In this document: positions 7,746 through 30,948 of the stretch, one piece after another
Position numbering within the stretch: the stretch's first letter is position 1
How the letters are laid out: every line of letters begins with the position of its first letter
Assembly (NCBI GenBank): GCA_039915165.1
Contig: JBDSNU010000017.1
Location: forward strand, 2,041 to 66,040
From: Minisyncoccota bacterium
Lineage (GTDB): Bacteria > Patescibacteriota > Minisyncoccia > Phycocordibacterales > UBA9973
Direction: 5' to 3'
Length of the DNA: 64,000 nucleotides
Translations under genes and position numbers: made by a program
Notes under the pieces: model-generated
What the model was told of the DNA's origin: nothing
Databases searched by the model: none
What the model saw: the letters and a program-made list of their open reading frames with translations, nothing else

Positions 7746-9955
7746 GTTGTAACCATGAGTAATTGCTTATTATCAATCGGTAATAGATCGTAAATTGCTT
7801 CAGTCACAAATGGCATAAATGGGTGGAGTGCCGTGATAGTTTCAGAAAGTAGTGTTAACAATAATTTCTGGCGAGATAGTTTGATAGCAGGGTCTTCACT
7901 AGTAAGTAGTGATTTACTTTCTTCAAGAATAGTGTTAGCAAATTCATCCCAAATAAAGTGATATATACCTTCGGTCGCTAAGTGTAGTCTGTATGTTTCT
8001 AAATCAGTAGTAATACTTTGAAGAGTAGTGTGCCATGCAGCAAGTACTACTTCATCATCTTTTGTATATATTGCAGTACTTACTTCGGCAGAATAATTTG
8101 TGAGCACAAATCTAGCAATGTTCCAGAGCTTGTTTGCAAAAAGTTTATATCCTTTGATACGACTTTCATCAAATTTAATATCACTACCCACAGCACTTCC
8201 TACAATAAGGCCCATACGTAGCGCATCGGCACCGTATTTTTCAATCATCTCAAGAGGATCCACGCCATTGTTAAGTGATTTACTAAACTTACGGCCATCT
8301 TTTGCACGAACGAGGCCGTGAATCAATACTTTTTTAAATGGTACCTGTCCAAGGTGAAAACCACTCATCAAAATCATACGAGATACCCATAATGGCAAAA
8401 TCTCATATGCAGGGGCAATCAATGAAGTAGGGTGGTATGTTTTGAGGTCAGGAGTTTCTTCAGGCCAACCTAGTGTAGAGAATGTCCATAATGCAGAAGA
8501 AAACCATGTATCAAGTACATCTACTTCTTGCTCCCAGCCGTCTCCTTCAGGAGCTACGACGTTGCAATAAATTTCTTTACCTTTTTCTGTAGCGCGATAC
8601 CATACGGGGATACGATGACCGAACCAAATCTGACGTGAAATACACCAGTCATGCAAATTTTCAATCCAGTGAAAATATGTTTTACGAAAACCTTCCTGAG
8701 ACATATCAATTGCCCCGCTCTCCACCGCTGTTTTCATCAATGTCTTCAATGTAGTTTCGCTACCACTAGCAATGCCTGGGATTTTTGAGTGGGGAATTAT
8801 AAAAGGCTTGTTAACGCCAATGAACCATTGTTCCATGATCTGAGGTTCAATTGTTGCACCGGTTCGTTCTGATGTTGCAATGTTATGCATATAGTTCTCT
8901 TCAATACGAACTAATAAACCTTTTTCTTTAAGTTTTTCCACAATCTTTTCTCGAGCCTCAGAAATTTTCAATCCAGCAAACTCTCCAGCAATAGGAAGTA
9001 GTTTCCCATACTTATCAATAACTTGTTCTTTGTCGAGGTGGTGACGTTCAGCAATTTCAAAGTCCACCATTGAGTGCCATGGAGTAATAGTCATTGCCCC
9101 AGTACCTATTTCCGGGTCACTGGCAGCGTCTTTAATTACTGTTGCAACAATCGGGCCATTGATCCATTCGAGTTCAATTTTTTGACCATGAGTATACTCT
9201 TGGTATTTTGCATCATCAGGATTAACTACAATATATTTGTCACCAAACTTTGTTTCGGGACGAGCAGTACCGATTACGAAAGGACCGTATTGAAAATAAT
9301 AAAATTTTGCCTTTTCTTCTACGTACACCACTTCATCATCTGAAATAGTGGTTTGCCCCTTTGGATCCCAGTTAACAATACGATGACCTTGATAAATAAG
9401 CCCTGCATCATACATTCGTTTGAATGCGGTAAAGACTGCGCGATTTCTTTTTTCATCCAGTGTGTATGCATAGCGAGTCCAGTCAAGTGAAGCACCCATC
9501 TTTCGAACTTGGCCCAAAATAGTATTTTCACTATCTTTTGCGAATGCATGTACGCGTTTTACCATTTCTTCACGACCAAGATCATGCCGAGTTTTACCTC
9601 CTTCTTTTTGTAAGTTTTTTTCTACACGAGCTTGTGTCGCAATTGCTGCAGAGTCTGTTCCTGGGATCCACAAAGTTTTTTTACCATTCATACGATTAAA
9701 ACGGACAATGATATCTTGCAGTGTATCTTCGTAGGCATGACCAACGTGCAGAGTTCCTGTCACATTGGGAGGGGGGAGGACAATAGTAAATGCTTCGGCA
9801 TCAGGTTTTGTTAACCCATCCTTGATCATATTTTCTGGCGTGAAGTATCCAGAATCTTCCCACTTCTTATAAATAGACACTTCTTCTGCAGCTGGGTCGT
9901 ACGGTTTTAATAATTTTTCGGGTACTTGCCCTGAGGTATTCGAATGGGGTTGCAT
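7730..9955 (-). CDS. valS: Valyl-tRNA synthetase (short form, 741 aa)
   Basis: PPPNVTGTLHVGHAYEDTLQDIIVRFNRMNGKKTLWIPGTD (HIGH region) and KFSKSLNN (KMSKS). Editing-domain region present; C-terminal coiled-coil apparently absent. Confidence 0.85.
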   Translation of the reverse strand: MQPHSNTSGQVPEKLLKPYDPAAEEVSIYKKWEDSGYFTPENMIKDGLTKPDAEAFTIVLPPPNVTGTLHVGHAYEDTLQDIIVRFNRMNGKKTLWIPGTDSAAIATQARVEKNLQKEGGKTRHDLGREEMVKRVHAFAKDSENTILGQVRKMGASLDWTRYAYTLDEKRNRAVFTAFKRMYDAGLIYQGHRIVNWDPKGQTTISDDEVVYVEEKAKFYYFQYGPFVIGTARPETKFGDKYIVVNPDDAKYQEYTHGQKIELEWINGPIVATVIKDAASDPEIGTGAMTITPWHSMVDFEIAERHHLDKEQVIDKYGKLLPIAGEFAGLKISEAREKIVEKLKEKGLLVRIEENYMHNIATSERTGATIEPQIMEQWFIGVNKPFIIPHSKIPGIASGSETTLKTLMKTAVESGAIDMSQEGFRKTYFHWIENLHDWCISRQIWFGHRIPVWYRATEKGKEIYCNVVAPEGDGWEQEVDVLDTWFSSALWTFSTLGWPEETPDLKTYHPTSLIAPAYEILPLWVSRMILMSGFHLGQVPFKKVLIHGLVRAKDGRKFSKSLNNGVDPLEMIEKYGADALRMGLIVGSAVGSDIKFDESRIKGYKLFANKLWNIARFVLTNYSAEVSTAIYTKDDEVVLAAWHTTLQSITTDLETYRLHLATEGIYHFIWDEFANTILEESKSLLTSEDPAIKLSRQKLLLTLLSETITALHPFMPFVTEAIYDLLPIDNKQLLMVTTWPMK

Positions 9956-10101
9956 ATCAAGTTACTATATCATTAATTACCCTTTGTTTCTATAGCGCTA
10001 TGGCGATTTCTCATATGTAATAGCACAGGCAGCATCTTCATTGACTTTTATCATAAAATATGTTTTAATATAATAAATTCACCTCATTAAAATATAGTCG
10101 T

Positions 10102-10617
10102 ATGAAAATAATTTTGCTTTCCGTATTATTTTGGATAATTGCAATCGCAGTATTTGCTCAAGAAAAATGGGTACCAGTTGATGCCAATAAGAAATATCTG
10201 GCAGTAACTATTATGCCTGATGGAACATTCCAAAAAATTATTCTTGATGCAGATGAAAATGCTAAACAAGAATTTGTCCATGTAGCTTTAGCAAATACTA
10301 ACAACACTGCCCCGATTACTTTACAGCAAAGAATGTATTACATTGGTCAAACAGTTAATACAGACGACCTCTCCTCAATTTCCGAAAGTGATGCATATCG
10401 CTTTCTGGCCAATCAATTGTGTGAAAGTTGTAGTGTACAACGAGTAGTGAGTAAAAATGTAGTGACGTTTATGTGTACTCACGATTCATCCGGTAGATTG
10501 ATGCTTATACAAACGTATTGGGATCAACCAACTGCTAAATGGATTGTGAATGTCTCATACACTAACGTTGCTCATCAAACATTCAAAATCATTAAACCTT
10601 CAAGGTTTGTTTATTAA
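10102..10617 (+). CDS. Secreted hypothetical protein
   Basis: N-terminal signal peptide MKIILLSVLFWIIAIAVFA-QE. No recognisable domain. Confidence 0.45.
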   Translation: MKIILLSVLFWIIAIAVFAQEKWVPVDANKKYLAVTIMPDGTFQKIILDADENAKQEFVHVALANTNNTAPITLQQRMYYIGQTVNTDDLSSISESDAYRFLANQLCESCSVQRVVSKNVVTFMCTHDSSGRLMLIQTYWDQPTAKWIVNVSYTNVAHQTFKIIKPSRFVY

Positions 10618-10627
10618 AGCAAACTGT

Positions 10628-10672
10628 CCACATAGGCCATTACAATAATAATTGTAATGGCCTATTTTTTAT
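10628..10672. terminator. Hairpin terminator (bidirectional)
   Basis: ATAGGCCATTACAA-TAATAA-TTGTAATGGCCTAT followed by TTTTTTATT. Confidence 0.6.
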
Positions 10673-11988
10673 TGGGCGATAGAAAGATTACCATTCGCTT
10701 TGAGAGTTTCTGCTGGTTGAATAGTCATTGAACCTGATTGTATTCGAGCAAAAGCCGCCAGACCGATCATTACTGCATTGTCAGTGGCTAGCCATGGCTC
10801 CGGGAAGAGTACGACAACACCAGGCAGTTTCTTTGCTACGCGAGCAGTGAGTTGTTCTTTGAGGTAAGTGTTACCAGAAACACCACCACCAACAACAACA
10901 GTTTGAATACCAAATTCTTCAATTGCGCGCATCGTTTTTTTAGTTAATACATCGATTGCTGCATCTTCAAATGCACATGCCAGCGCTTGTTTTTCAGCTT
11001 CTGTGAGATCACGAACAGGAGCTGTCCCGAGCGTAGTCGAGGGATCTTGCACCAGATCTCGTATCGTATACAACACGGCAGTCTTCAATCCAGAAAATGA
11101 AAAATCATAATCACCTGAGTGCATCATCGGACGCGGAAATTCAAATTTATTTTCTATACCTAATAGCCGGAACTCCCTTGCCAGTTTAGAGACTGCTGGG
11201 CCTCCTGGATAGGGTAGTCCGATCATTCGCGCCACCTTATCAAAAGCTTCACCAACAGCATCATCGCGTGTCTGACCAATCTTTTCATATTCACCATAAC
11301 TTTTTGTTAATACTAGTTCAGTGTGTCCACCAGAAACGAGTAATGCCAAGAGTGGGAATTCTAATTCTTTGAATAAGTACGACTTAGTAGGAGGCAAAAC
11401 AAGAAGACCATATTGCTGGTCCTTGGTCCTCGCTAATCGCTCACCAGACGCATCAATATGGTCTTCTTGTTTTGCCTCCAGAGAAGCCTGGAATTCAATT
11501 ACCGCTGCTGTCACTACATGTCCTTCCATATGATTCACAGGAATCACTGGAATATCCCAGATCTTCGACAATACTTTTGCCGCATTGATGCCAACCCATA
11601 AAGCCGGTTCAAGTCCAGGGCCAACAGTTACTGCGATGTAATCAATGTCAGGTTTTTCATATGTATTAAAAAGGTCAACAAAACCACTAACCATTTCATC
11701 TTCCCGGTTGCAGATCGATGCAACCGTGTCCGTCAAAGCCATGTCTGATGTGGCGACGGAGGATTTGTTAATTAATACTCCAGCTTGCAGCAAAGCATCT
11801 TTTAGAAGAGGAACAATCTTTTCTGCATGCGCGCGTTTTGCCATAGCAGGGAAGACACCGCCGTATTGTGCATGAAGATCGATTTGAGATGCGAGGGCAT
11901 TGCCCAGTAATGTAATACGTTGCCCATCTTGGCTCAAAATTGAGATCCCTGTCTCGTCACAGCTAGTTTCAATAGCCAAAATTTTCAT
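10669..11988 (-). CDS. tsaD: tRNA N6-adenosine threonylcarbamoyltransferase TsaD (Kae1/Gcp family) with an internal insertion
   Basis: MKILAIETSCDETGISIL N-terminus, HMEGH metal site, LVSGGHT. Listed ORF start 12072 moved to the ATG at 11988 (MKILAIET). About 40 aa extra between HMEGH and SGGH relative to E. coli TsaD. Confidence 0.8.
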   Translation of the reverse strand: MKILAIETSCDETGISILSQDGQRITLLGNALASQIDLHAQYGGVFPAMAKRAHAEKIVPLLKDALLQAGVLINKSSVATSDMALTDTVASICNREDEMVSGFVDLFNTYEKPDIDYIAVTVGPGLEPALWVGINAAKVLSKIWDIPVIPVNHMEGHVVTAAVIEFQASLEAKQEDHIDASGERLARTKDQQYGLLVLPPTKSYLFKELEFPLLALLVSGGHTELVLTKSYGEYEKIGQTRDDAVGEAFDKVARMIGLPYPGGPAVSKLAREFRLLGIENKFEFPRPMMHSGDYDFSFSGLKTAVLYTIRDLVQDPSTTLGTAPVRDLTEAEKQALACAFEDAAIDVLTKKTMRAIEEFGIQTVVVGGGVSGNTYLKEQLTARVAKKLPGVVVLFPEPWLATDNAVMIGLAAFARIQSGSMTIQPAETLKANGNLSIAQ

Positions 11989-12062
11989 CGAATTACTATA
12001 GCATTTGATTGATTCTTTTGGAAGGTGTGGTATGATATGGCGAAATAATAAACCAATTAAAT

Positions 12063-12221
12063 ATGAGCTCAATTACTGAAAAAGATGCAGAATTAATTCG
12101 GGATGCGGTGAGATCAACTCAAAAAGTCGTTAGCTTATCTGATCACAGAAAAAAACTAGCGAAAAAACGCCAAGCTGAACAACAAAATGAACAGCTAAAC
12201 AGGCGCAGAGCGTGTTCTTAA
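12063..12221 (+). CDS. Small basic hypothetical protein (52 aa), below the ORF-track cutoff
   Basis: ATG at 12063, open to TAA at 12219-12221, followed by hairpin terminator CCCTTC-ACAT-GAAGGG plus T7 at 12254-12280. Confidence 0.3.
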   Translation: MSSITEKDAELIRDAVRSTQKVVSLSDHRKKLAKKRQAEQQNEQLNRRRACS

Positions 12222-12326
12222 CAATGTAATGTATTTACGACCCGCATCAAAAAGTCCCTTCACATGAAGGGCTTTTTTTCTTGCCAAATTATAAAAATGT
12301 GGTAATGTAATAAAAACAAAATAGTT

Positions 12327-13964: not shown

Positions 13965-14054
13965 TAATAACCACACATTGCTAAGAGACCAGTTCATCCT
14001 GGTCTTTTTTATTGACTTTTTAATAGAAAAAGGTATGGTAAAGAAAACATAAAG

Positions 14055-14492
14055 ATGAAAAAATACTTATTATATGCCGTAGTGTCATGTGCGATAGTAT
14101 TGACCACTACTCCTACGTATGCACAAATAGACCGTGTGCCACCTCTGAGTCTGGAACCAAGCGAGTTGGCCGGACAAAAGATTTGTCAGTATTATTGTCC
14201 TGATACATTGCACCTGATACAAGCTAAATATCTGAAACATACAACAGTACTTCCTGCCGGCACGCAACTTGGAGGAAATCAAATCAGTATGGACTTGGCT
14301 ATTAATTGTGCGATATATTTAGCATCAGACACTGTCACATTTCTTCCTTCCAAAAAAATATGGAATGGTATCCGTACTACCGATGGCATGCTCATCCTGT
14401 TTTGGGAAAAAGGGAAGTGGATACTCTGGTATGACAAAAAGAATCCCGATCAAATTGATCAGGAAATACAACTCTTCACGTACACAAATTAA
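14055..14492 (+). CDS. Secreted hypothetical protein
   Basis: Signal peptide MKKYLLYAVVSCAIVLTTTPTYA-Q. Terminator AAAAAGCCGCT-GCAAG-AGCGGCTTTTT at 14498-14525. Confidence 0.45.
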   Translation: MKKYLLYAVVSCAIVLTTTPTYAQIDRVPPLSLEPSELAGQKICQYYCPDTLHLIQAKYLKHTTVLPAGTQLGGNQISMDLAINCAIYLASDTVTFLPSKKIWNGIRTTDGMLILFWEKGKWILWYDKKNPDQIDQEIQLFTYTN

Positions 14493-14525
14493 AAAACAAA
14501 AAGCCGCTGCAAGAGCGGCTTTTTA

Positions 14526-14553
14526 TTGACATTTTTAATAAATAGTGTAGAGT
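14526..14553 (+). promoter_or_regulatory. Sigma70-type promoter (TTGACA-16-TAGAGT)
   Basis: The listed TTG start of ORF 14526 is actually the -35 hexamer. Same TTTTATTGAC-W-TTTTTAATA terminator-promoter module as at 14006. Confidence 0.4.
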
Positions 14554-14576
14554 TTTTAAAACGTAACATACAAATT

Positions 14577-14984
14577 ATGAAAGCAAAAAACAAAACCATT
14601 ATTATCATTGAGGTATCAGATTTGGTAACAACACTTGAGCATTCAAAAATTATTGCCGCAGGTGGAATACTCGATACAGTTACTATTAATGAGAAAAACC
14701 AAATTGAAATTGTGTTTTTAGCAGGTGGCTCTATAGAAGGTATTGAGAAAATAGTTACTGTTGTAAGCGCAGAAACAGAAGCATTTCTTAGTACGCCATT
14801 AGGTGAATTAGATTTGAGTGTATATCTTATCAATCTACTTAAAGCAAAAGATATAGTAATTATTGGCGATATTAAAAAGCATACCTGGGACGAACTTTTA
14901 AAAACCAGGGGATTTGGCGAAAAAGCCGCAAAATCACTAAAGCAGCTACTGGAAGAACACCATGTTTGTTTGACTCAAAAGTAA
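14577..14984 (+). CDS. Hypothetical protein with C-terminal RNAP alpha-CTD-like helix-hairpin-helix domain
   Basis: C-terminus LDLSVYLINLLKAKDIVIIGDIKKHTWDELLKTRGFGEKAAKSLKQLL aligns to E. coli RpoA CTD ([48 protein letters not shown]). Start moved to the ATG at 14577. Confidence 0.5.
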   Translation: MKAKNKTIIIIEVSDLVTTLEHSKIIAAGGILDTVTINEKNQIEIVFLAGGSIEGIEKIVTVVSAETEAFLSTPLGELDLSVYLINLLKAKDIVIIGDIKKHTWDELLKTRGFGEKAAKSLKQLLEEHHVCLTQK

Positions 14985-15033
14985 TTCTTGGTAAAACACA
15001 TGCAAAGCAATCTTAGAAATAAGATTGCTTTTT

Positions 15034-15177
15034 TATTTTGTGTGTACGCCCTGTCGCTCTTCGAGCTATGAGGTGGGCCCACCGCGAAGCATGAGGTCTT
15101 CGAATGCGAAGTGGTGACCCCACTGCGTGGCTTTCAGAACTTTTAAAGCAAAGTGATTATATAAAAAGTAGTATTAA
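15034..15177 (+). repeat. Cassette-boundary repeat, copy A
   Basis: TTTATTTTGTGTGTACGCC...GTGGTGACCCCACTGCGTGGCTTTCAGAACT...GTGATTATATAAAAAGTAGTATTA. Contains an internal duplication of a CATGAGGT...GCGAAG unit. Sits between convergent terminators. Confidence 0.7.
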
Positions 15178-15252
15178 TTCTCTGAGGATATTGATGAAAT
15201 AAAAAAGAGCATCACGTTAATTCGTAATGCTCTTTACTGTTTTTGAAATCCC

Positions 15253-15717
15253 TTATACAAGCTCTGTGCCGTTCTGTATCGCGAAGCGGAAGCCTCGTGA
15301 TTTAACGTAGCCTTCGAGTATGTCTACCATAGATTGACTGATACCGCGGAACTTTGTCAGCTCGGTTGCAGGCACGGAAAGCATGTCAGAAAGATACACC
15401 CAACCGCTTGCCCTTACTGCCAGACCAATGCGCGTAACACTGTTCTTGTTACCAACGGTATGGTCATGGAAGTCAATCATGAAGTCGCGCAGAGGTATCC
15501 CTTTGGCGTTCTCCATCATTTCCTGACGTTCGGAAATCTCCCTCTTCGTTAGCTTCCTCGCAAATGCAAGGTTTACGAAGATTTTATCAGGCAGGTTCGT
15601 GTTGATGGTAAAGTTCCTGTCTCCCGTGATTTTCATTGCTCCCTTTGCAAGGAGCTTAACAAGGTCTTCTTTGCCAATCTCCAGAGTGGCAGAGATGTCG
15701 TTTTTAGTTACTTTCAT
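15253..15717 (-). CDS. Hypothetical protein with C-terminal RNAP alpha-CTD-like domain
   Basis: C-terminus LAVRASGWVYLSDMLSVPATELTKFRGISQSMVDILEGYVKSRGF resembles the alpha-CTD HhH (weaker than its two neighbours). Own hairpin terminator at about 15200-15235. Confidence 0.45.
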   Translation of the reverse strand: MKVTKNDISATLEIGKEDLVKLLAKGAMKITGDRNFTINTNLPDKIFVNLAFARKLTKREISERQEMMENAKGIPLRDFMIDFHDHTVGNKNSVTRIGLAVRASGWVYLSDMLSVPATELTKFRGISQSMVDILEGYVKSRGFRFAIQNGTELV

Positions 15718-15775
15718 CAGTATAGGTTTTTAATGTTTTACATTTTTTATTTGTCCTAACCCTAGCACAAAACAC

Positions 15776-15804
15776 TTGACATGTCAACGTATTGTGGTAA
15801 TGTG
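15776..15804 (+). promoter_or_regulatory. Promoter with palindromic -35 (TTGACATGTCAA)-16-TAATGT
   Basis: Perfect 12-bp palindrome overlapping -35. Near-identical 28-nt copy at 17188-17215. The listed ORF start 15781 is the ATG inside the palindrome. Confidence 0.45.
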
Positions 15805-15906
15805 AAGGAAACACTAAAACCCAATAACGATGATAGACATACCAAATCCGCCCAAACTCGTAAGCGAGGGCCATCTCTCTCCAGAAGGAGCGGAAACACT
15901 CTTAAA

Positions 15907-16479
15907 ATGGAAGAGGCCTTTGACAAGCTCGGCTACGCCGCTGATATAGAGGAGAGCAACTCTGGCGCTGTGCTTCTAAAAAACGGTGACCTGTTATGGT
16001 TCGATTCCAATGCCGCGCCAATTGACGCTGGCGACTACGCACCGTACATCCACGGTCGTCTGACAAGTGACATGAAAGGTAGTATCTGCATTTACGATCC
16101 CGAGCACGGTTCGGAAAGGTCGTTTAAGAAATGGATAACCATGATCGAGGAAGCCGGCTCTCCTGTTAAGGAAGAAGAAACGTATGGCACGTGGGAGGAG
16201 ATATACAATATCGCCGCCAAGTACGCAGACTTCAGGAACAGCATGATTCCGCCTATCGACAACATTGAGGCCAAGGAAAAGTTCCTCGATACCAGCCTCT
16301 ACGATCTGGAGGTAAGCACACGGGTGTTTACCAGCCTTGCTGCGCAGAATATCTTGACCCCGCGCGACCTTTTAGGCTACACGGCTTCAGAACTTTTGAA
16401 ATTTAATAATTTTGGCAAGAAGACCCTTCCTGAGATTGTAGAGATTCTGAAAAGGTATGATCTTCAGCTAAAGGATTGA
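15907..16479 (+). CDS. Hypothetical protein with C-terminal RNAP alpha-CTD-like domain
   Basis: C-terminus DLEVSTRVFTSLAAQNILTPRDLLGYTASELLKFNNFGKKTLPEIVEILKRYDLQL is a strong match to alpha-CTD (ELLK..N.GKK.L.EI). Start moved from 15781 (in promoter) to ATG 15907 after GGAG. GC-rich (about 50%). Confidence 0.55.
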   Translation: MEEAFDKLGYAADIEESNSGAVLLKNGDLLWFDSNAAPIDAGDYAPYIHGRLTSDMKGSICIYDPEHGSERSFKKWITMIEEAGSPVKEEETYGTWEEIYNIAAKYADFRNSMIPPIDNIEAKEKFLDTSLYDLEVSTRVFTSLAAQNILTPRDLLGYTASELLKFNNFGKKTLPEIVEILKRYDLQLKD

Positions 16480-16523
16480 TTTATTCAAACCGCTTAAGCC
16501 CTCTCAGAAATGAGGGAGCTTTT

Positions 16524-16634
16524 TTTATTTGTGCGTGCACCGCATAGCTCGAGGTCTTCGAGAGCGACGTGGTGACCCCACTGCGTGGCTTTCAGAACTT
16601 TGTAGGAATGGTGATTATATAAAAAGTAGTATTA
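16524..16634 (+). repeat. Cassette-boundary repeat, copy B
   Basis: TTTATTTGTGCGTGCACC...CGAGGTCTTCGAGAGCGACGTGGTGACCCCACTGCGTGGCTTTCAGAACT...GTGATTATATAAAAAGTAGTATTA. Confidence 0.7.
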
Positions 16635-16707
16635 CTGTATTGGAAGTGTTAGTAAAATAAAAAAGCTTCACATCTTAATGTGAAGCTTGAAGAATTTGAT
16701 TCATAAC

Positions 16708-17127
16708 TCAGTGCGTCGGGATGACTGTTTCTTTTGTGGTGCTAATTTCCCACCTGAGCTTAAGCGCCCAGCCCTGAGCGTATGAGTCATAAAGACCCTG
16801 CATCTGCTCAAGGGACTTACATTCCATGCGCTTGTCGCCAAGGCCCTGGTCGTATATCCCGATAACCTTATCGTCTTTGCCTAGTACAGGCATAGACGTG
16901 GGTCGGCCATACAGCTCAAGCGGCCTTGAGCCCATCGCTGTGACATTGATGCCTGCGGAGCCCTTGAACCTAATAGATGCTTCATCTGCTATATTTGAAG
17001 CAATAATGGCTTCGTACCAAAAATCAGGATAGCCATCAAATGCATCTTTAACTGTGCGAATGTTTGCTTCCCATTCCTCGGCGGAAGCGCTACCTCTCAT
17101 TAGATCAATAACTTCTTGTCTTGTCAT
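16708..17127 (-). CDS. Hypothetical protein (139 aa)
   Basis: ORF with hairpin terminator (AAGCTTCACAT-CTTAA-TGTGAAGCTT) downstream. No domain recognised. Confidence 0.45.
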   Translation of the reverse strand: MTRQEVIDLMRGSASAEEWEANIRTVKDAFDGYPDFWYEAIIASNIADEASIRFKGSAGINVTAMGSRPLELYGRPTSMPVLGKDDKVIGIYDQGLGDKRMECKSLEQMQGLYDSYAQGWALKLRWEISTTKETVIPTH

Positions 17128-17187
17128 TGCAAATTTATTTAGAGTGAATTAAAAGTACTTTACTGGTTTTATAATAACAGAATGTCC

Positions 17188-17215
17188 TTGACATGTCAAT
17201 GTATTGTGGTAATGT
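17188..17215 (+). promoter_or_regulatory. Second copy of palindromic-operator promoter TTGACATGTCAA-16-TAATGT
   Basis: CCTTGACATGTCAATGTATTGTGGTAATGT, differing by one base from the 15776 copy. Confidence 0.45.
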
Positions 17216-17234
17216 AAAATAAAGTTTTAATTCC

Positions 17235-17870
17235 TTGCGGATGCAGGGTGGCTCACTTGAGCAACGGAGCATGTTCCCAGCTTCAACCTTGGGAATGTTA
17301 TTTCAAAACAATTTTCGGATGGAAATGTTAACTATCAACGACGGTCCCTCAAGGGAGGAGCTGTTCGACTCAATTCGCCGCAGCATTGATGTATGGTTTG
17401 AATTTGCACCTGTGCGTAATGGCCAAGCGCAGGTATTCTCGGTCAAGCGAGTTGTGCTCAATTATGACCAAAGCAACCATTTCTGGCACGTCATTTTCAA
17501 TGTCGGATTCAAGGGAGAGACCCTGCACGGCAAACAGTATCAGGCTTACTATTCAACAGGCAGTCGCAAGGGCTTTACCGTCGAAAAGGAGGTAAGCTTT
17601 GAACTTGTTAAAGGCGAGACTCATCATTATCCGCTCACATCGGGCGAACTGTATGCAATGCTCAAGTATTCAAAGTTATGTCCGACCTTGCACTGGAACA
17701 TGCTACACGCTCGACTTGATAAAGCCATTCCAAACTACCCGCTGACCGAAGACGTGATGAGGAGGCAGAAAAAGCTTCCGCTACTGCTGTCGAAGATAAG
17801 GAAATCCAAGAAACTGGACGCGGTGGAAAAGCACCTTCCCGAAATGATGCAACTGCTTTGCATGCCTTAA
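17235..17870 (+). CDS. Hypothetical protein (start uncertain; listed TTG)
   Basis: 211-aa ORF downstream of the operator-promoter. No domain recognised. Terminator 17884-17918. Confidence 0.45.
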   Translation: MRMQGGSLEQRSMFPASTLGMLFQNNFRMEMLTINDGPSREELFDSIRRSIDVWFEFAPVRNGQAQVFSVKRVVLNYDQSNHFWHVIFNVGFKGETLHGKQYQAYYSTGSRKGFTVEKEVSFELVKGETHHYPLTSGELYAMLKYSKLCPTLHWNMLHARLDKAIPNYPLTEDVMRRQKKLPLLLSKIRKSKKLDAVEKHLPEMMQLLCMP

Positions 17871-17910
17871 TTGCATGCTGCGCCCTGAAACCTAAAACGT
17901 TTCGGGGCTT

Positions 17911-17991
17911 TTTTATTTGCATAAGTTCTGAATACGCAATGTAGTATGTAAAAATATCTTTACATACTAGCGTTTAAAATTTGTGACCCCA
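17911..17991 (+). repeat. Cassette-boundary repeat, copy C (left-arm type 2, truncated after GTGACCCCA)
   Basis: TTTTATTTGCATAAGTTCTGAATACGCAATGTAGTATGTAAAAATATCTTTACATACTAGCGTTTAAAATTTGTGACCCCA, then unrelated sequence. Left arm shared with copy E. Confidence 0.6.
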
Positions 17992-18120
17992 AGACTTGGA
18001 TTTCCGAACTGGTCCAAGACTACTCATTGATCAAGGCGAGCATTTTTGAAATGAAAGAGTTGGATTTCTCTATCAAATAAAAAAGGCGGACATAAAGGTC
18101 CGCCTCTCAATTTACAAATT

Positions 18121-18672
18121 TTAAATTCTTTCCCTCATCCAATCAAATAGTGCCCTGCGGCTTTTGATAACTTCTGTGAGTGACGTAGGTTCAGGGTAAG
18201 GGTCAATGAACGGAGCAGCATCCTTTGTGTGAGGCTTCAGCAGTACAATGCCCGTGAGCGATCCCGCTATCACTGCAGCCATACCAATCACAACGATGAG
18301 GCTCGCGTAAGCGAAAGTGAACGCAATGGGCCCGAAGAACGCATAGTATACGATTGCCATTATCAGGCTAAATCCCAGTCCTGGCCCGATACCGACCCAC
18401 ATATCTCCCATGGTGTCCATAAAATCGTCAAAGAGGTCATCGGATGCATCGTAAGGCTTGTCTTTCTTGTTAACTACAAAGTATGACCCCAATCCGCCAA
18501 GTGCATAGACTGCCACGAGGGTAATTTTTGCAAAAAGGGCGAAATTTGAGGAGTCGTGCTCTAAGCCCCAACCCATCCGGTAAATAAGTACCCCTGCAAG
18601 AACGAATACTGCGAGTTTTGCGATCGCTACCACTGCTTTTTTCAGGAAGCTAAAGTTGAATGTTGTTTTCAT
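18121..18672 (-). CDS. Polytopic membrane protein, hypothetical
   Basis: Four or five predicted TM helices (VVAIAKLAVFVLAGVLIY, ITLVAVYALGGLGSYFVV, etc.). Confidence 0.45.
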   Translation of the reverse strand: MKTTFNFSFLKKAVVAIAKLAVFVLAGVLIYRMGWGLEHDSSNFALFAKITLVAVYALGGLGSYFVVNKKDKPYDASDDLFDDFMDTMGDMWVGIGPGLGFSLIMAIVYYAFFGPIAFTFAYASLIVVIGMAAVIAGSLTGIVLLKPHTKDAAPFIDPYPEPTSLTEVIKSRRALFDWMRERI

Positions 18673-18684
18673 TTTTTTTGTTTT

Positions 18685-19251
18685 TTAAAGAATGTTGTTT
18701 TCAATACCATACACTTTCCTAAGTGCAGTCCGAGCGTCCTCGCCCAGGCGGTCTGCCACGATAAACCAAAACGGTATGCGGCTTTCCCATTGCTCTTCTC
18801 GCGATACGCGCTGGTCAACCTCTAGGGTGTCCAGCAGCATCATCCATTGCAGCTCAACGAACTGCTTGGGCGTGACAGGAAGATTTGTCAGAAGCTCCCT
18901 GTCTAATAAAAAATAGGGTGTGTTTTCCAACACGCTTCGGTCAAAGGACTGCTGCGACATGCGGCAATAGGCATATACTAAGGCTTCTGCCTCAGCGCCA
19001 ATCTTTTCCCGTACTTCGCCACGACGCTCAAGTGAAATTGAGAAGCCGTTGAAGTTTTCAGTGCCGTAAATTGAATGGAAGAGCCCAGCCACTATCGTTG
19101 AGAATGGGCGGTTATACCTTTCCAGATATTTTGCCAAGCCTTTCAGGTGAGGGAGAAACTTTCCGTTAGTGTGCTCGACGTCTGTGACGCCAAGCGTAAG
19201 CAGGTAGTCCGATAACGGACCGTTCAGAAGCGTTTTTTCTTGTGTTGTCAT
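18685..19251 (-). CDS. Hypothetical protein
   Basis: Start moved from the listed TTG at 19278 to the ATG at 19251 (MTTQEKT...). No confident domain. Confidence 0.4.
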   Translation of the reverse strand: MTTQEKTLLNGPLSDYLLTLGVTDVEHTNGKFLPHLKGLAKYLERYNRPFSTIVAGLFHSIYGTENFNGFSISLERRGEVREKIGAEAEALVYAYCRMSQQSFDRSVLENTPYFLLDRELLTNLPVTPKQFVELQWMMLLDTLEVDQRVSREEQWESRIPFWFIVADRLGEDARTALRKVYGIENNIL

Positions 19252-19297
19252 GAGGTTACATTTTTTAACATAATGCAATATATGTTAAAAAATGTCA

Positions 19298-19367
19298 ATG
19301 TTTTGTGACCCCACTGCGTGGCTTTCAGAACTCGTTAAGAACGGTGATTGCATAAAAAGCAGTATTA
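19298..19367 (+). repeat. Cassette-boundary repeat, copy D (right arm only, fused to a promoter fragment)
   Basis: ATGTCAATGTTTTGTGACCCCACTGCGTGGCTTTCAGAACTCGTTAAGAACGGTGATTGCATAAAAAGCAGTATTA. The preceding ATGTCAATGT is a half-copy of the operator-promoter. Confidence 0.6.
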
Positions 19368-19473
19368 TAGAGTTGAGAAACATCAAGGTGGTGTGAAGCT
19401 ATTGAACCTATACGCGTTACTTGACATTTTTCATATAGATGATATTGTAATTTCAAACTTAAAACAAATAAAT

Positions 19474-20037
19474 ATGAATTGGTACTCAATCTTTTACTGG
19501 TTGACCGTAGCGGACAGCGTAAAAAAATTCTTCGATACTACAAGCAATATCTTTACTTGGTTTGCAGTTCTATCATTCCTTGTAGTAGTTGCTACGACAA
19601 TCGGCAAGTCTTATCAGATTTCCGAAAATAGCATTAAAACTCCAGAGGAAGAAGCAACGGACGCTGACGTGAGAAGTTGGGATTTCCTTAAAAGGATATC
19701 TAGCAAATTCTTCTGGTGGATGTTGCCCCTTGCCCTTGTTACATGGCTTGGTTATGTAATGACTCCTACTAAAAAGGACTGTCTGCTGATTGTTGCCGGT
19801 GGTGCTGTTGGAAACTTTATGACCACTGACACTTCCGCAAGGAAACTGCCGTCTGATGTAACCAAGTTTCTGCACTTGAGCTTAAAAAATGAAATTGCGG
19901 GACTCAGCGACACGGCGAAGAAAGAACTCGGCATAACAACTCCGAAAGATGAGTTCTTAAAGAAGGCCGCTAAAATGTCCAAAGAGCAATTGCTGAAATA
20001 CTTACAAGCAGACACAACAGTTTTAAAGGATAACTAA
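19474..20037 (+). CDS. Membrane protein, hypothetical
   Basis: Two TM helices. Start moved to the ATG at 19474 because the listed upstream start lies inside repeat D. Confidence 0.45.
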   Translation: MNWYSIFYWLTVADSVKKFFDTTSNIFTWFAVLSFLVVVATTIGKSYQISENSIKTPEEEATDADVRSWDFLKRISSKFFWWMLPLALVTWLGYVMTPTKKDCLLIVAGGAVGNFMTTDTSARKLPSDVTKFLHLSLKNEIAGLSDTAKKELGITTPKDEFLKKAAKMSKEQLLKYLQADTTVLKDN

Positions 20038-20085
20038 CTCCTTATTATTACTATCCTAAACCGCACTTTACGAAAGGGCGGTTTT

Positions 20086-20218
20086 TTATTTGCAAAAATT
20101 CTGAAGACGCATTTGGGTATATAAAAATATCTTTACAGGATAGCGTTTAAAATCTGTGACCCCACTGCGTGGCTTTCAGAACTTATGAGGAGCAGTGATT
20201 ATATAAAAAGTAGTATTA
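20086..20218 (+). repeat. Cassette-boundary repeat, copy E (full length, carries both arms)
   Basis: TTTTTTATTTGCAAAAATTCTGAAGACGCA...TAAAAATATCTTTACAGGATAGCGTTTAAAATCTGTGACCCCACTGCGTGGCTTTCAGAACT...GTGATTATATAAAAAGTAGTATTA. Confidence 0.7.
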
Positions 20219-20246
20219 TTGAACTAGTACAGCTTGTGAAATAATT

Positions 20247-20275
20247 TTGACAAAAATCTATTTTTGAAATCTAAT
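20247..20275 (+). promoter_or_regulatory. Promoter TTGACA-17-TCTAAT for umuDC
   Basis: Canonical -35 with a plausible -10, 18 nt upstream of the SOS box. Confidence 0.4.
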
Positions 20276-20292
20276 ACAGCTTCTATTTACAA

Positions 20293-20308
20293 GTGAACGT
20301 TTGTTCAC
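20293..20308 (+). promoter_or_regulatory. SOS (LexA/DinR-type) box GTGAAC-N4-GTTCAC
   Basis: Perfect inverted repeat GTGAACgtttGTTCAC matching the GAAC-N4-GTTC Cheo-box consensus, placed between promoter and umuD. Confidence 0.5.
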
Positions 20309-20750
20309 TAAACTAACCTCTGTGAAAGTATCTATTTTAACGACCTTACCTCATTCCCACCATAAAGTTATCCCTATTGTATTAGCCAAGGTACAAGCGG
20401 GTTTTCCTTCACCTGCCGATGATTATATTGAATCTGCATTGAATATTAACGACCTTTTTCAAGTGGATGAATCAAGTACCTTCTTTGTTCGTGTTGAAGG
20501 AAGTTCAATGATAAATGCAGGAATCATGAATGGAGACATATTGTGTGTCCGTAGAGATTTAGAGCCAAAAGAAGGCAAGATTGTCATTGCTATTATCGAT
20601 AGCGAATTCACCGTTAAAAGATTTATGAAAAAAGGCAAGAGAGTAATATTCGAAGCAGCTAATGATGACTACCCATCAATTGAGCCCCAGGACGGTCAGA
20701 GCGTCGAGATATGGGGTGTTGTAACAGGGTTTGCCCGAACGTTTAAATAA
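20301..20750 (+). CDS. umuD: UmuD-like S24 peptidase (translesion synthesis accessory subunit); start uncertain
   Basis: QAGFPSPADDYIE, catalytic GSSM serine and FTVKRF lysine in UmuD/LexA-C-terminal spacing. No N-terminal HTH. The listed TTG start lies inside the SOS box. Confidence 0.7.
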   Translation: MFTKLTSVKVSILTTLPHSHHKVIPIVLAKVQAGFPSPADDYIESALNINDLFQVDESSTFFVRVEGSSMINAGIMNGDILCVRRDLEPKEGKIVIAIIDSEFTVKRFMKKGKRVIFEAANDDYPSIEPQDGQSVEIWGVVTGFARTFK

Positions 20751-20751
20751 T

Positions 20752-22098
20752 ATGTACAAGAAGCTCTACGCCCTCATAGACTGCTCCTCATTCTATTGCT
20801 CTTGTGAAAGGGCTTTTCGTGCTGACTTAAAAGGAAAGGCAATTTGCGTCCTTTCAAACAACGATGGCTGTATTATTTCTTTAACACCCGATACTAAAGC
20901 ACTAGGGTTTAAAATGGGCACACCGTACTATCAAATTAAAGATGATCTCGCCCAAAAAGGGGTTGCGGTCTTTTCATCTAACTATTGTCTCTACGCTGAT
21001 ATGAGCAAGCGTATTGTGAAGATAATACGATCGTTTAGTGATTTTGTTGAGCAATACTCAATTGATGAATCGTTTGTACAGTTTGAAGCAAATACAAATA
21101 ATATAGAACAAGAAAGAATACGGTTACATGCTCTGGCTGAAGAGATACATTTTACTATCCTAAAGAAAACGGGAGTGCCAGTAAGAGTTTCAATTGCTGA
21201 AACAAAAACATTGGCTAAGGTTGGTAGTGAGTATACAAAGTGCCTTATTAAGCAAGGTATTGTCCCAGCAGTGTGCTTTTGGGAACACCCAGACAAAGAT
21301 GGCTATATGAAAACACTTCCCGTAAATGATGTATGGGGCATAGGACGACAATGGAGTAAAAAGTTAGAAATGTCAGGAATTAAAACAGCAAAAGATTTAT
21401 CAATGGCTAATCCTGACTTACTGAAAAAGAATTACTCTATTGTTATGGAGCGCACAGCAAGAGAGCTTTCTGGATTCTCTTGCATATTGTTTGAACTAGT
21501 TGCTCCTGAACGTAAAAGCCTGGTACGAAGTCGCATGTTTTCTCATAAGATAACTGATGCCAAATACCTTAAACAGGCTATTTCGTTCCACCTAGCTCGA
21601 GCCAGTGAGAAACTACGGAGTGATAAACTTATGGCTACTGAACTATCAATATTTATGTCCACTGGTAGACACACCGAAATAACTAAATATAGTTATGCAC
21701 ATCAGACATTACTTCGTCCAACGAATGACATAATAATTCTGGCAGAAGTCGCAGACAAACTATTTAAAGAATGTTATGTGAAAAATGACAAATTTGGTAA
21801 TGAATATAAGTATTCAAAAGCAGGAGTATCACTTAGTGGATTTTCAAGTATTGATAAACAGAGTGAACCACTTTTTGATATTGGTATTACAGAAAGACCC
21901 GCGTTAATGAAAATACTTGATGGGCTTAATAGAAAGTTTGGAAAGCATACCGTAGTTCTCGCTTCTATGGGGGTCCCAAAAAAACTACAGAAAATAGAAG
22001 CAGCTAAAGACGATGCTATTGAATGGGGTATGAAGAGAGGGTTAATGAGTAAGCGGTTTACAACAGTTTGGGAAGAAATTTTACAAGTTAAAATATAA
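20752..22098 (+). CDS. umuC: UmuC-like Y-family DNA polymerase
   Basis: MYKKLYALIDCSSFYCSCERAFRADLKGKAICVLSNNDGCIISLTPDTKALGFKMGTP matches the UmuC N-terminus. The ATG at 20752 is 2 nt after the umuD stop. Confidence 0.8.
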   Translation: MYKKLYALIDCSSFYCSCERAFRADLKGKAICVLSNNDGCIISLTPDTKALGFKMGTPYYQIKDDLAQKGVAVFSSNYCLYADMSKRIVKIIRSFSDFVEQYSIDESFVQFEANTNNIEQERIRLHALAEEIHFTILKKTGVPVRVSIAETKTLAKVGSEYTKCLIKQGIVPAVCFWEHPDKDGYMKTLPVNDVWGIGRQWSKKLEMSGIKTAKDLSMANPDLLKKNYSIVMERTARELSGFSCILFELVAPERKSLVRSRMFSHKITDAKYLKQAISFHLARASEKLRSDKLMATELSIFMSTGRHTEITKYSYAHQTLLRPTNDIIILAEVADKLFKECYVKNDKFGNEYKYSKAGVSLSGFSSIDKQSEPLFDIGITERPALMKILDGLNRKFGKHTVVLASMGVPKKLQKIEAAKDDAIEWGMKRGLMSKRFTTVWEEILQVKI

Positions 22099-23137: not shown

Positions 23138-23438
23138 GGATATTGAAGGGATAATGTTTATATTTGGTGATTGATGACCCCTATAATGGGATCAGTGGAC
23201 GCAAAAATCCCACCACAAGGGTGAGAGCTTTCGCCCTCCAATACTCGTTTCCAAGTACGGCCTCTTAAGCACTCCCGTATGGCGGGGTTTTTACTTAAGA
23301 GGACTTTTGCCATGCCGTTGATTGCTCAAGGGGTTAGGCCATATCTATTGATTTGTACCCCAAAACTATACATTGTAGAGATTGTATTTACAATGGCACA
23401 TAGGTATATAATGTTCACAACGTTCACAACACTCACGC

Positions 23439-27889: not shown

Positions 27890-29707
27890 ATGCTCTTGAA
27901 GGGCTTGGGGAGGTATTGCGGGGCATACGGAAAAGAATGTTGTCCGAAGGATATGAAATCCATAATGGAGCCGTTTCTAAAAAGCATGAGCAAGCAAATT
28001 ATTAAAACTGAAAAAGAACTCATAGCAGAGATAGTGAACGGCAAATACCGCGAGTGCTATTTTATATACAACCGCAAGAGCACTGACGATGATGACAATC
28101 AGAAAAATTCCATTTCATATCAGAAAGCAGAGAATGCTCGATTTGCATTTAAAGAAAAGCTACCGATGGCACACCTTACAATAAAGGGTTTTTGTACCGA
28201 CGGGATTGTCTCGGAAAAGCATTCAGGATTTAAGGAGGATAATGATTTTAATATCACAGCTGATGGTCTAGTTCAGTATCGTATTGATAGACCAAAGTTT
28301 CAGCAAATGCTCCAGTTCGCAAGCCAGGGGCTTATAAGAGGTGTCGTTTGTCTTTGCTGGGACCGTATTAGTAGAAACAAAGGAGATGATACCCTTGTAA
28401 GAAAGCTTATGCGCAAAGGTGTAGATTTTCGATTCGTGTATGCAAACTATGATAAGACCAGTTCTGGTGCATTGCATATGGATATTGATGGAATGTTTTC
28501 CCAGCATCACTCTAGAGTTACTAGCGAAAAAGTTTCCATCACTACAAGGCACTCCAGAGAAAAAGGTATCTGTACCTACCGTGCACCCATCGGCTATTTG
28601 AACGAGGGTAACATGGATCACAAGCCCTTTGACCCTGAGCGTGCTCCCGTAATTACCCAGATGTATGAATTTTACGCTACTGGTGAGTGGAGCTTGTCTG
28701 ACCTGGCACGATACGCTGCAGAGCAAGGCTTCGTTACTGTTCCTATGAGACGAAGGAGAACGCAGGAGGAAATACTCGGTGAAGAGGATGAATTCGACGA
28801 GATTCAAAAGACATCTAGGCCAGTAAATGAGAATCATATCAGCCGAATACTCACCAATCCTTTTTATACAGGAAAGATTTTAGACTCAGGAGGCAAGCAC
28901 ATTGAAAGCAACAGCCACGAACCCCTTGTCAGCGAAGAGCTTTTTAATAAGGTGCAGGGTGTGCTCAAAAAGAAAAAGACTAGCGTGCATTACACAGAGA
29001 AATTAGATCTCCCGCTTCGGGGCGTTGTACGTTGTGAACTTTGTGAACGTGTATATACACCATACGAGAGAAAAGGAATTCTGTATTTCAACTCCCGCTG
29101 TATTAAGGGCTGTACTAACGAGCTCAAAAACTTTAACATTTCCTTCATTACTGAAAAGATCGCTGGGCTTATTGGCAACCTATACTTTACCGATGATGAA
29201 ATGGCTCAAATGGACGCTCGTATGGGTACAGACGTAGCGTTGCTTGAAGAAAAGCGCCTAAAGCAGCTAGACCAGGTCGAGAGAAGAAAAAAGAAAGTGC
29301 GTGAAGACCTTGCATATATTCGCTCGAACAAGCTCTCACTGCTTAAGACAGGCGTCTATACTGCCGAAGCGTTAGTTGAAGAAGAGTCAAATTTAAACGA
29401 GGAGCTCTTGATTCTTCAGAATCAAGAACAGTCTTCTGACATCGCTATGCACGAAACAATGAAGGACGTACAGAAACTTTCAGAACTAGTGAAGGACGTT
29501 ATGCCATATTACAATTTTGCCAATGCACATGAAAAAGAGAAAATAATCAGAGTTATCTTTTCAGAACTGACTATTTCACAGAATACGTTTAAATATAAAT
29601 GCAAAAGTGGCTTTCAGTGCTTTGAAAATCGCTTAAATGCAATGGGTGACCCCACGGGGAATCGAACCCCGATTAACGGCTTGAAAAGCCGGCGTCCTAA
29701 CCGTTAG
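27890..29707 (+). CDS. Large serine recombinase (resolvase/invertase-type catalytic domain plus recombinase and zinc-ribbon domains); start uncertain
   Basis: FIYNRKSTDDDDNQ...SISYQ catalytic-serine motif, DRISRN, recombinase domain, Zn ribbon VRCELCERVYTPYERKGILYFNSRCIKGC, coiled coil. The ORF reads through the antisense tRNA-Glu gene. Confidence 0.7.
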   Translation: MLLKGLGRYCGAYGKECCPKDMKSIMEPFLKSMSKQIIKTEKELIAEIVNGKYRECYFIYNRKSTDDDDNQKNSISYQKAENARFAFKEKLPMAHLTIKGFCTDGIVSEKHSGFKEDNDFNITADGLVQYRIDRPKFQQMLQFASQGLIRGVVCLCWDRISRNKGDDTLVRKLMRKGVDFRFVYANYDKTSSGALHMDIDGMFSQHHSRVTSEKVSITTRHSREKGICTYRAPIGYLNEGNMDHKPFDPERAPVITQMYEFYATGEWSLSDLARYAAEQGFVTVPMRRRRTQEEILGEEDEFDEIQKTSRPVNENHISRILTNPFYTGKILDSGGKHIESNSHEPLVSEELFNKVQGVLKKKKTSVHYTEKLDLPLRGVVRCELCERVYTPYERKGILYFNSRCIKGCTNELKNFNISFITEKIAGLIGNLYFTDDEMAQMDARMGTDVALLEEKRLKQLDQVERRKKKVREDLAYIRSNKLSLLKTGVYTAEALVEEESNLNEELLILQNQEQSSDIAMHETMKDVQKLSELVKDVMPYYNFANAHEKEKIIRVIFSELTISQNTFKYKCKSGFQCFENRLNAMGDPTGNRTPINGLKSRRPNR

Positions 29708-29718
29708 ACGATGGGGCC
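29647..29718 (-). tRNA. tRNA-Glu (anticodon TTC)
   Basis: Reverse complement folds as GGCCCCA-TC-GTCT-AACGGTTA-GGAC-G-CCGGC-TTTTCAA-GCCGT-TAAT-CGGGG-TTCGATT-CCCCG-TGGGGTC-A. Followed by CCCA, not an exact CCA. Confidence 0.75.
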
Positions 29719-29811
29719 ATAGTAAATGGCGTGAGTAACGTGACCATTATAAATAAAATTTGGAAAAAGTAAACCGTGCTTGTTTTTGCAAGCACGGCAG
29801 TGGGAGGGAAT

Positions 29812-30237: not shown

Positions 30238-30340
30238 ATGTGTATATTTTTTTGCATTGTGTATAAAAAATCCTATTTTGTCAATAAACAAAAACCGCCC
30301 TCCATTGTAATGGAGGGTGGGGAATGATAGGTGGTTAAAA

Positions 30341-30814: not shown

Positions 30815-30874
30815 ATGTTTTTTAAGTTTGAGCTAGTTTGCCTAAAATGAGATTATTTGTCAAACTATTTTTGC

Positions 30875-30948
30875 GCGCGATTAGCTCAGATGGTTAGAGC
30901 GCAACATCGACATTGTTGAGGTCACAGGTTCGATCCCCGTATCGCGCA
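30875..30948 (+). tRNA. tRNA-Val (anticodon GAC), slightly atypical
   Basis: GCGCGAT-TA-GCTC-AGATGGTTA-GAGC-G-CAACA-TCGACAT-TGTTG-AGGTC-ACAGG-TTCGATC-CCCGT-ATCGCGC-A. C at position 33 and an A-C mismatch in the T-stem. Confidence 0.5.

Follow-up and report, generated by a model that had tools for sequence, protein, structure and literature searches.

A probable orphan attL-type junction in an array of recombinase-tail repeats beside tRNA-Glu in a Minisyncoccota bacterium

The analysed stretch of 64,000 nucleotides (the window) comes from a Minisyncoccota contig and carries five repeats in direct orientation (tails A–E), which lie to the left of a single element bearing a large serine recombinase (LSR) gene, beside tRNA-Glu. 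The LSR gene occupies positions 27986–29707 on the + strand (open reading frame 27890–29707), and its product is 100% identical to P0001. The integration target, tRNA-Glu(UUC), is encoded at 29643–29719 on the − strand, with the attR crossover window GTGAC at 29646–29650. The recombinase contains a Resolvase domain (Pfam, E = 1.2e-12) and a Recombinase domain (E = 4.7e-13), and its catalytic Y-x-R-x-S motif (Y28, R30, and S32) is unvarying across 36 LSR homologues. These domain matches, together with the homologue search, agree with an earlier note on this DNA in which a serine recombinase was proposed as the responsible enzyme. The LSR gene reads into the tRNA-Glu gene on the opposite strand, and its last 20 codons, with the terminal residues ..NAMGDPTGNRTPINGLKSRRPNR, are the reverse complement of tRNA-Glu; the 29643–29719 end is therefore in the attR state. 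At this junction the + strand reads ATGGGTGACCCCACGGGG, and GGTGACCCCAC is common to the tRNA and the repeats, so that the tRNA 3' end does share the repeat core, as the same note had supposed.

The search with the LSR returned 1361 homologues. Among the best 120 of these, 77 are in an attR-type state, ending in ..[CG]DPT[GE][NS]RT.., which corresponds to reading into the tRNA, while 25 are intact and of the attP type, being 10–30 residues longer and ending in ..[CG]DPTAWLSEL...I..SI..L... The WLSEL tail of these 25 homologues is the peptide encoded by the repeats, which identifies the repeat as the native 3' end of the recombinase gene; the earlier note had missed that the repeat is the recombinase's own C-terminal coding tail. 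Judged from its sequence, the repeat is not an operator and not an RNA but the P' arm of the LSR attP, and it encodes the native C-terminal helix of the recombinase (DPTAWLSEL..IKSSI..L). In the AF2 model of the intact homologue P0035 (pLDDT 76), the zinc ribbon is formed by β-strand elements at residues 348–384 and 525–539, with long helices (403–511) in between. The last zinc-ribbon strands precede a low-confidence linker that contains D-P-T (551–553), and the linker is followed by a separate C-terminal helix comprising residues 558–580. The closest intact homologues of the LSR are P0008 (72% identity), P0035, and P0054. A third class of C-terminus, ..C[ED]E[IL]IT[FL]ARTYF.., which is neither tRNA-derived nor of the WLSEL type, was observed in P0015, P0037, P0080, and P0119, and probably reflects another target or another tail family. 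The 3' coding DNA of the recombinase also contains a palindrome in the region encoding GF[EQ]CFE, located 30–45 nt from the crossover (window 29590–29625; L017 11615–11640; L015 3400–3420), whose arms co-vary between loci, as in GGCTTTCGAG-tgt-CTCGAAAGCC of L017. This palindrome might act as a terminator or as a processing hairpin for the tRNA after integration.

Tails A (15116–15202), B (16574–16660), C (17985–18080), D (19307–19396), and E (20158–20244) all lie on the + strand. A and B were each recognized by an exact core copy, a tail open reading frame, and the peptide profile; the DNA of C has diverged with its reading frame kept (DPKTWISEL...), and D, an orphan C-terminal tail, encodes DPTAWLSELVKNGDCIKSSIIELRNIKVV followed by a stop codon. 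The core GTGACCCCACTGCGTG occurs in four exact copies, all on the + strand, at 15114, 16572, 19305, and 20156, with 0.18 copies expected by chance. The repeat is about 89 nt long. In a single frame, all tail copies encode DPTAWLSEL-x4-D[YC]IKSSI-x2-L..., with a stop after 28–31 codons; the open reading frames end at a common point, and no upstream gene or long open reading frame is present at any copy. A search of the window with the peptide profile recovered exactly five tail copies and none elsewhere, and the pairwise dN/dS values among them range from 0.16 to 0.82, all below 1. Tail E is probably the attL that belongs to the 9.5-kb LSR element, since the resulting element length agrees with those at the related loci L019, L023, and L029. 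An exact 24-mer scan located the repeat at two genome loci and 12 metagenome loci, and further copies were found on the contigs of homologues, while the same scan of viral contigs gave no match. A megablast search of window positions 14000–21000 against phages and plasmids likewise gave no match, and Rfam returned nothing at the repeats, either with gathering thresholds or with a relaxed E-value.

The homology among the copies begins at [G/A]T immediately followed by GACCCC, in all five tails and in some 20 further copies at 15 other loci; leftward of this point the sequence is either unrelated or belongs to one of a few arm families. The alignment indicates that this breakpoint is common to the whole repeat family. 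A recombination junction at a fixed position, as put forward in the earlier note, is thereby borne out: the breakpoints do not differ between the five window copies and the approximately 20 found elsewhere. C (17985) and E (20156) do reach the core through TTTGTG and TCTGTG, respectively, but TTGTG as a conserved part of the site had to be abandoned, as the left arms agree in [T/G]GT only. The commonest arm ending is TTTGT, found in 7 of 21 arms; it is seen in L002, L008, L019, and L023, in the C arm of the window, and in the debris on the left side of A and B.

The 2-bp crossover in copy D lies within the interval GTGAC at 19305–19309 (+). In the window, the identity between attP and attB spans the whole of GTGACCCCAC, so that the window alone cannot place the cut, and the limits of the interval were taken from comparison. 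The left limit is the homology onset in all copies, and the right limit is given by the core differences between attL and attR in L019 and L029, together with the tRNA-specific cores of L029 and L030. With a slash marking the homology onset, attL and attR of L019 read ..TTTGT/GACCCACTAGCG and ..TTTGT/GACTCCACGGGG, and those of L029 read ..ATTGT/GACCCTATTGC and ..TTTGT/GACCTTACGGGG. The 60-nt P (recombinase-side) arms of L029 and L030 are identical, but the cores differ, being GACCTTAC (tRNA-Glu UUC) and GACTCTAC (tRNA-Glu CUC), each of which matches the 5' acceptor strand of its own tRNA. Since the sequence from +4 onward (counting the G of GACCCC as +1) is target-derived in attR and element-derived in attL, the crossover falls within GTGAC, which leaves GT, TG, GA, and AC as candidate dinucleotides. 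The crossover at TG (19306–19307) favored in the earlier note thus falls inside the interval but is not distinguished from the other three. In L015 (3448–3522) and L016, an occupied tRNA-Glu(CUC) site shows three G·U pairs between the acceptor strands, in which the 3' strand AGCCCCA does not co-vary with the tRNA 5' strand GGCCTTA. This sole non-co-varying case, which would fit a crossover further to the right, could represent a chimeric tRNA. L015 suggested that the crossover might be at AC, rightward of the acceptor stem, but this was rejected for the family because L019, L029, and L030 contradict it; an attP center at about −1.5, derived from TGAAA/TTTCA symmetry, was not relied on because it involves a single 5-nt motif.

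The units of the array share a layout consisting of a tail, leftward gene(s), a bidirectional promoter, rightward gene(s), a terminator, an arm, and the next tail, and all units of the window other than the one between C and D (unit C..D) end in a terminator and an arm. Tail A, the gene at 15253–15717 (−), and the palindromic promoter next to it are the counterpart of the left end of the L023 element, with 67% identity at the protein level. The left arms of copies C (17904–17984, +) and E (20077–20157, +), designated type 2, are homologous to each other (z = 22.7), and they score z = 15–16.5 against the flank abutting tRNA-Glu in L014. Homology was also observed between the A and B arms (z = 10.8) and, in L003, between the arm to the left of the tail and the tRNA flank (z = 12.6). 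A relationship of the type-1 arms, which flank A and B on the left, with the tRNA flank and tail arm of L003 was discarded (z about 0), as was a decayed forward P' site within the type-1 arms, for which the scores lay within those of shuffles. The type-2 arms (17904–17984 and 20077–20157, and L014 3055–3141) contain an inverted, decayed P'-like site approximately 40 nt to the left of the crossover, with the reverse complement ACCCAAATGCGT-C-TTCAGAATTT and a score of 22–24, compared with 11 ± 2 for shuffles. Among the related loci, the simple order host, attL, about 9 kb, LSR, and tRNA-Glu is found in L019, L023, and L029; recombinase-less units lie directly against tRNA-Glu in L014 and L011; and multi-tail arrays occur in L001, L010, L014, and L028. 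No attL was found within 10 kb upstream in L017.

The bidirectional promoters of unit A..B (15775–15811; TTGACATGTCAA followed by TGTGGTAATGT, likewise present in L023 at 3210) and of unit B..C (17187–17223) are palindromic. The latter is the "intact promoter" of the earlier note, and its string CCTTGACATGTCAATGTATTGTGGTAATGTAAAAT was found at 17186–17220 as described there. The interpretation of TTGACATGTCAA as an operator, however, did not find support: it consists of two overlapping divergent −35 hexamers of a bidirectional promoter located between divergent genes. The extended −10 element TGTGGTAATGT, shared with these cassette promoters, also occurs upstream of gmk at 12298 (promoter at 12280–12316). 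This sharing suggests that it is the promoter form in standard use in the host, with sigma-70-like TTGACA −35 boxes.

The left arm of D (19252–19306, −) is the promoter region of a DUF6817 gene (18685–19251, −; PF20680, E = 7e-24), whose product is 100% identical to P0121, a protein that bears the NCBI name Candidatus Paceibacterota; by this name the host is a CPR MAG. The promoter, with its −35 TTGACA at 19298–19293 and its −10 CATTAT at 19275–19270 (TTGACA-17-CATTAT), matches at 10 of 12 promoter positions and lies about 20 nt upstream of the gene. A perfect 15-nt inverted repeat (I25, 19258–19295; ACATTTTTTAACATA, 8 nt, TATGTTAAAAAATGT) extends over this promoter and is a candidate operator. 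The closest DUF6817 relative outside the genome of the window is P0122 (74% identity), which is located in L028. Window positions 18698–19301 can be aligned with the L028 unit over 604 nt (73% identity) and no further than 19301 (..AAATGTCAAYGT), after which L028 goes on with GAGATAGGGG.. and the window with TTTGT/GACCCC. In the orientation of the window, the L028 unit comprises a tail, a leftward gene, the leftward DUF6817 gene, and a 115-nt divergent promoter region. Its rightward half then opens with a gene for 182 aa, which a TTGACTTGTCAATGTATTATGGTAATGT promoter separates from a gene for 156 aa, and closes with a terminator, an arm, and a decayed tail. Unit C..D of the window is without the entire rightward half and ends in the promoter region, at most 5 nt from the crossover. 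Since the L028 homologue possesses a rightward half that is absent from the window, D truncates the unit in mid-promoter.

The fusion of D with half a promoter had been deduced in the earlier note from the identity of its left side with the palindromic promoter. The string in question, AAAAAATGTCAATGTTTTGTGACCCCACTGCGTG, is present in repeat D, but it spans 19287–19320 rather than 19291–19320, an offset of 4 nt. Within it, ATGTCAATGTTTTGTG (19292–19307) matches 17193–17208 at 15 of 16 positions and has two mismatches relative to 15781–15796; a 16-mer match with at most one mismatch appeared in none of 200 shuffles of the window. The identity is thus real, but most of it is the −35 region of the DUF6817 promoter itself. 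The first 10 of the 16 matching bases, ATGTCAAYGT, also occur in the homologous promoter of L028, where no repeat is present, and are therefore not evidence of fusion; only the last 5–6 matched bases bear on the junction. The bases TTTGT (19302–19306) match neither L028 nor the P' arm, and they may be either the promoter spacer ATTGT with one change or an ordinary arm ending. Population variants of the D junction, which the earlier note had proposed to look for, were not found: L026 and L027, independent Logan assemblies of this genome (SRR26386601 and SRR26386600), match the window at 100% identity, and repeat B (16572) is the exact point at which each of them breaks off, which indicates that the repeat array limits assembly.

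Given the identity of the repeat, the common breakpoint, the GTGAC crossover window, and the truncation relative to L028, we consider it likely, with a probability of about 0.8, that D is an orphan attL-type junction of an LSR integrative element whose attP lies inside the recombinase gene, and that it truncates unit C..D. In the proposed mechanism, the crossover would take place in the codons for Cys/Gly-Asp-Pro-Thr (..GT/GAC CCC AC..), which would encode a flexible linker, and the roughly 90 nt to its right, the P' arm, would encode the last helix of the protein. The recombining site is predicted to be GTGACCCCAC-TGCGTGGCTTTCAGAACT, with the tRNA-Glu 3' end as its partner; the element would integrate there, the acceptor stem contributing an identical GTGACCCCAC. 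Integration would part the tail from the gene, leaving the recombinase to end in tRNA-encoded residues (attR, 29646 onward) and the tail to remain at the far end of the element (attL). At D, unit C..D would stop in its bidirectional promoter region and be joined to the next tail at the family-wide breakpoint. We infer that the recombinase catalyzed the truncating event, for which two routes are conceivable: a secondary site in the promoter, ending in ..TTGT/G, may have recombined with the true junction, or the next unit may have been inserted at the D point. D would presumably still be able to serve as an alternative attL, and excision between D and attR would then yield a 10.3-kb circle and an intact recombinase open reading frame. 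Neither an excised circle nor an empty site for D was found, and none of the contigs fetched was circular.

The 15/16 match between D (CAATGTTTTGT/G) and the promoter (CAATGTATTGT/G) is also what would be expected if the recombinase had cut at TG inside a palindromic promoter of the 17187 type (..CAATGTATTGTG/GTAATGT) and joined its left half to the P' arm, the rightward half of the promoter being deleted or displaced. TG falls inside the bounded crossover window, and the two neighboring units and L023 have the palindromic promoter type at the equivalent position. However, the closest relative, L028, differs after CAAYGT (GAGATAGGGG) and has no overlapping-palindrome promoter, TG is not separable from GT, GA, and AC, and TGTG is too short to define a secondary site. 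We therefore regard a cut at this specific promoter as possible but take it up with reserve.

The homology with L028 reaches only as far as 19301, five bases before the crossover, and TTTGT is matched in neither L028 nor the P' arm, which leaves room for an ordinary deletion in which all but the last bases of a standard arm were lost. Such a deletion, involving no recombinase, would extend from after CAATGT (19301) to the last 5 nt of the arm, and it presumes that a standard junction (terminator..ATTTGT/P') once followed unit C..D. The commonness of the ending TTTGT among the arms speaks for it, but it requires an endpoint lying no more than 5 nt from the crossover by coincidence, and no variant in which the deleted segment survives was found; a promoter continuing as ..CAATGTATTGTGGTAATGT.. 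in a related locus would be incompatible with it. We consider this explanation doubtful. It is unlikely that nothing was truncated and that a mobile unit without an LSR ends naturally, on its right, in the left arm of D; once circular, such a unit would carry promoter/P'(C) as an attP-like site. Units of this kind abut tRNA-Glu directly in L014 and L011, and left arms are very diverse; nevertheless, the homologous L028 unit has the full rightward half, and the other units of the window all finish with a terminator and an arm. Finally, the notion that the repeats are small genes, sRNAs, or REP-like intergenic elements, which resemble the promoter by chance, draws on an in-frame ATG in copies A and D and is touched neither way by the absence of an Rfam match, but it is effectively refuted by the homologue search, in which 25 intact LSR homologues have the tail as their C-terminus; it is further opposed by the DNA core being the tRNA acceptor stem at the LSR/tRNA junction, by start codons that are not conserved among copies, and by the shuffle result for the 16-mer.

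We conclude that D is a real recombination junction and that the system consists of LSR integrative elements that have an unusual att site, embedded in their own recombinase gene, and that tend to form arrays. Recombination of attP with attR is not carried out by canonical LSRs, and the build-up of attL-type arrays is not accounted for by the standard attP × attB rule. Beyond the reading of D as an orphan attL-type junction, we tentatively raise a broader scheme, in which the locus would be an LSR cassette-capture platform that moves recombinase-less units in trans, combined with a tail swap that acts as an integration-state switch. The units of such a platform, bounded by an arm resembling the tRNA flank and by a copy of the recombinase tail, would be excised and re-inserted beside tRNA-Glu in an integron-like manner. 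A last helix that alternates between the native tail and residues encoded by the tRNA would signal the integration state and bias the element toward integration or excision.

In comparison with known systems, the junction has the composition of an attL, in which a target-side arm is joined to an element-side arm at a fixed position with a core common to the target, and the cognate recombinase combines serine catalytic and recombinase domains with a zinc ribbon and coiled coil. The LSR elements of phiC31, Bxb1, A118, and TP901-1 similarly have Resolvase and Recombinase domains, a zinc ribbon with an inserted coiled coil, short att cores, a fixed breakpoint, and the integrase at one end of the element. 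In contrast to those elements, integration here is targeted to a tRNA 3' end, the integrase open reading frame contains attP, the C-terminal helix is exchanged, and orphan attL copies accumulate in arrays. The window LSR shares no more than about 25% identity with its best phage or plasmid matches, a phmmer search of the LSR against PDB sequences gave no hit, and PHROGs detected no phage hallmark genes on the LSR element. As in tRNA-targeting islands, an intact tRNA-Glu is accompanied by a 10–11 nt repeat of its 3' end at each tail, although typical tyrosine-integrase islands have a far longer one; no tyrosine recombinase was found in the island. SCCmec/SCC composite islands are inserted by CcrAB at the 3' end of rlmH. 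They share with the present locus an LSR-family insertion at the 3' end of a conserved gene and tandem units that arise by successive insertions, many of them lacking a recombinase, with direct repeats of the att core between them. They differ in their rlmH target, in place of which a tRNA is used here, and in their enzyme and repeat: the LSR is not a Ccr (47.7 bits against the NCBIfam CcrB cut-off of 900, and far below the XisF cut-off as well), and the repeat encodes the recombinase tail. The array pattern is closer to that of SCC composite islands than to what a canonical, one-shot serine integrase produces.

An att site inside the integrase gene has a precedent in the SSV-type ("suicidal") tyrosine integrases of archaeal viruses and plasmids, in which the gene is split by integration at a tRNA (PMC7253208, PMC8371274). 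The location of att in the integrase open reading frame and the tRNA target are shared, whereas the SSV-type enzyme is an archaeal tyrosine recombinase whose gene is split into two non-functional parts. The present enzyme is a bacterial serine recombinase with neither a tyrosine fold nor a gene in inactive halves; only its last ~29 residues are swapped, and the catalytic and DNA-binding domains remain intact. In mycobacteriophages with integration-dependent immunity, such as BPs and Brujita, integration alters the C-terminus of the repressor and hence its activity or stability (PMC4557955, PMC3694055). There, too, attP lies within a coding sequence, but a tyrosine integrase cuts the repressor gene, whereas here the serine recombinase itself is altered, any functional consequence being putative. 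Integrons share short gene units, a repeated recombination site, and a single adjoining recombinase gene. They differ in that no IntI, attC hairpin, or attI/Pc is present here, promoters and terminators belong to the units themselves, a tRNA serves as the anchor, and the repeat is a coding tail and not a hairpin or attC palindrome. Within a literature search of incomplete coverage, no description was found of a serine recombinase whose own last helix is exchanged at a tRNA.

Serine integrases are valued for genome engineering, having short sites and a direction set by a separate factor. Because att lies inside the LSR coding sequence, the C-terminal helix changes at every integration or excision, which provides a testable idea of how direction could be encoded without a separate factor. 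The LSR clade is large and previously uncharacterized, a single search having returned 1361 homologues, many of them from candidate-phyla-radiation bacteria, whose mobile elements are, to our knowledge, almost unknown. The stacked orphan sites show a tRNA-Glu locus of these tiny genomes to be a landing pad that accumulates and reshuffles small gene units, including polymerase-alpha-CTD-like proteins and an error-prone polymerase pair. A module resembling the C-terminal domain of RNA polymerase alpha (PF03118, E = 7e-12 and 8e-15) was found in two island proteins (14526–14984 and 15781–16479, +). The leftward gene beside tail A (15253–15717, −) has 67% identity to the first gene of the L023 element. 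The first cargo after tail E is a pair of genes for a umuD-like (Peptidase_S24) and a umuC-like (IMS family) protein, forming the error-prone polymerase pair at 20301–22098 (+). A LOOT RNA (Rfam RF03000) lies inside the 9.5-kb recombinase element at 23223–23340 (−), with a score of 72 bits against a gathering threshold of 46. Compared with L025, the segment from tRNA-Val to tRNA-Glu together with the island (window 6460–12072 and 29643–30949) appears to be inverted relative to the genes for TsaD, a class-I tRNA synthetase, PrsW, and HSP20.
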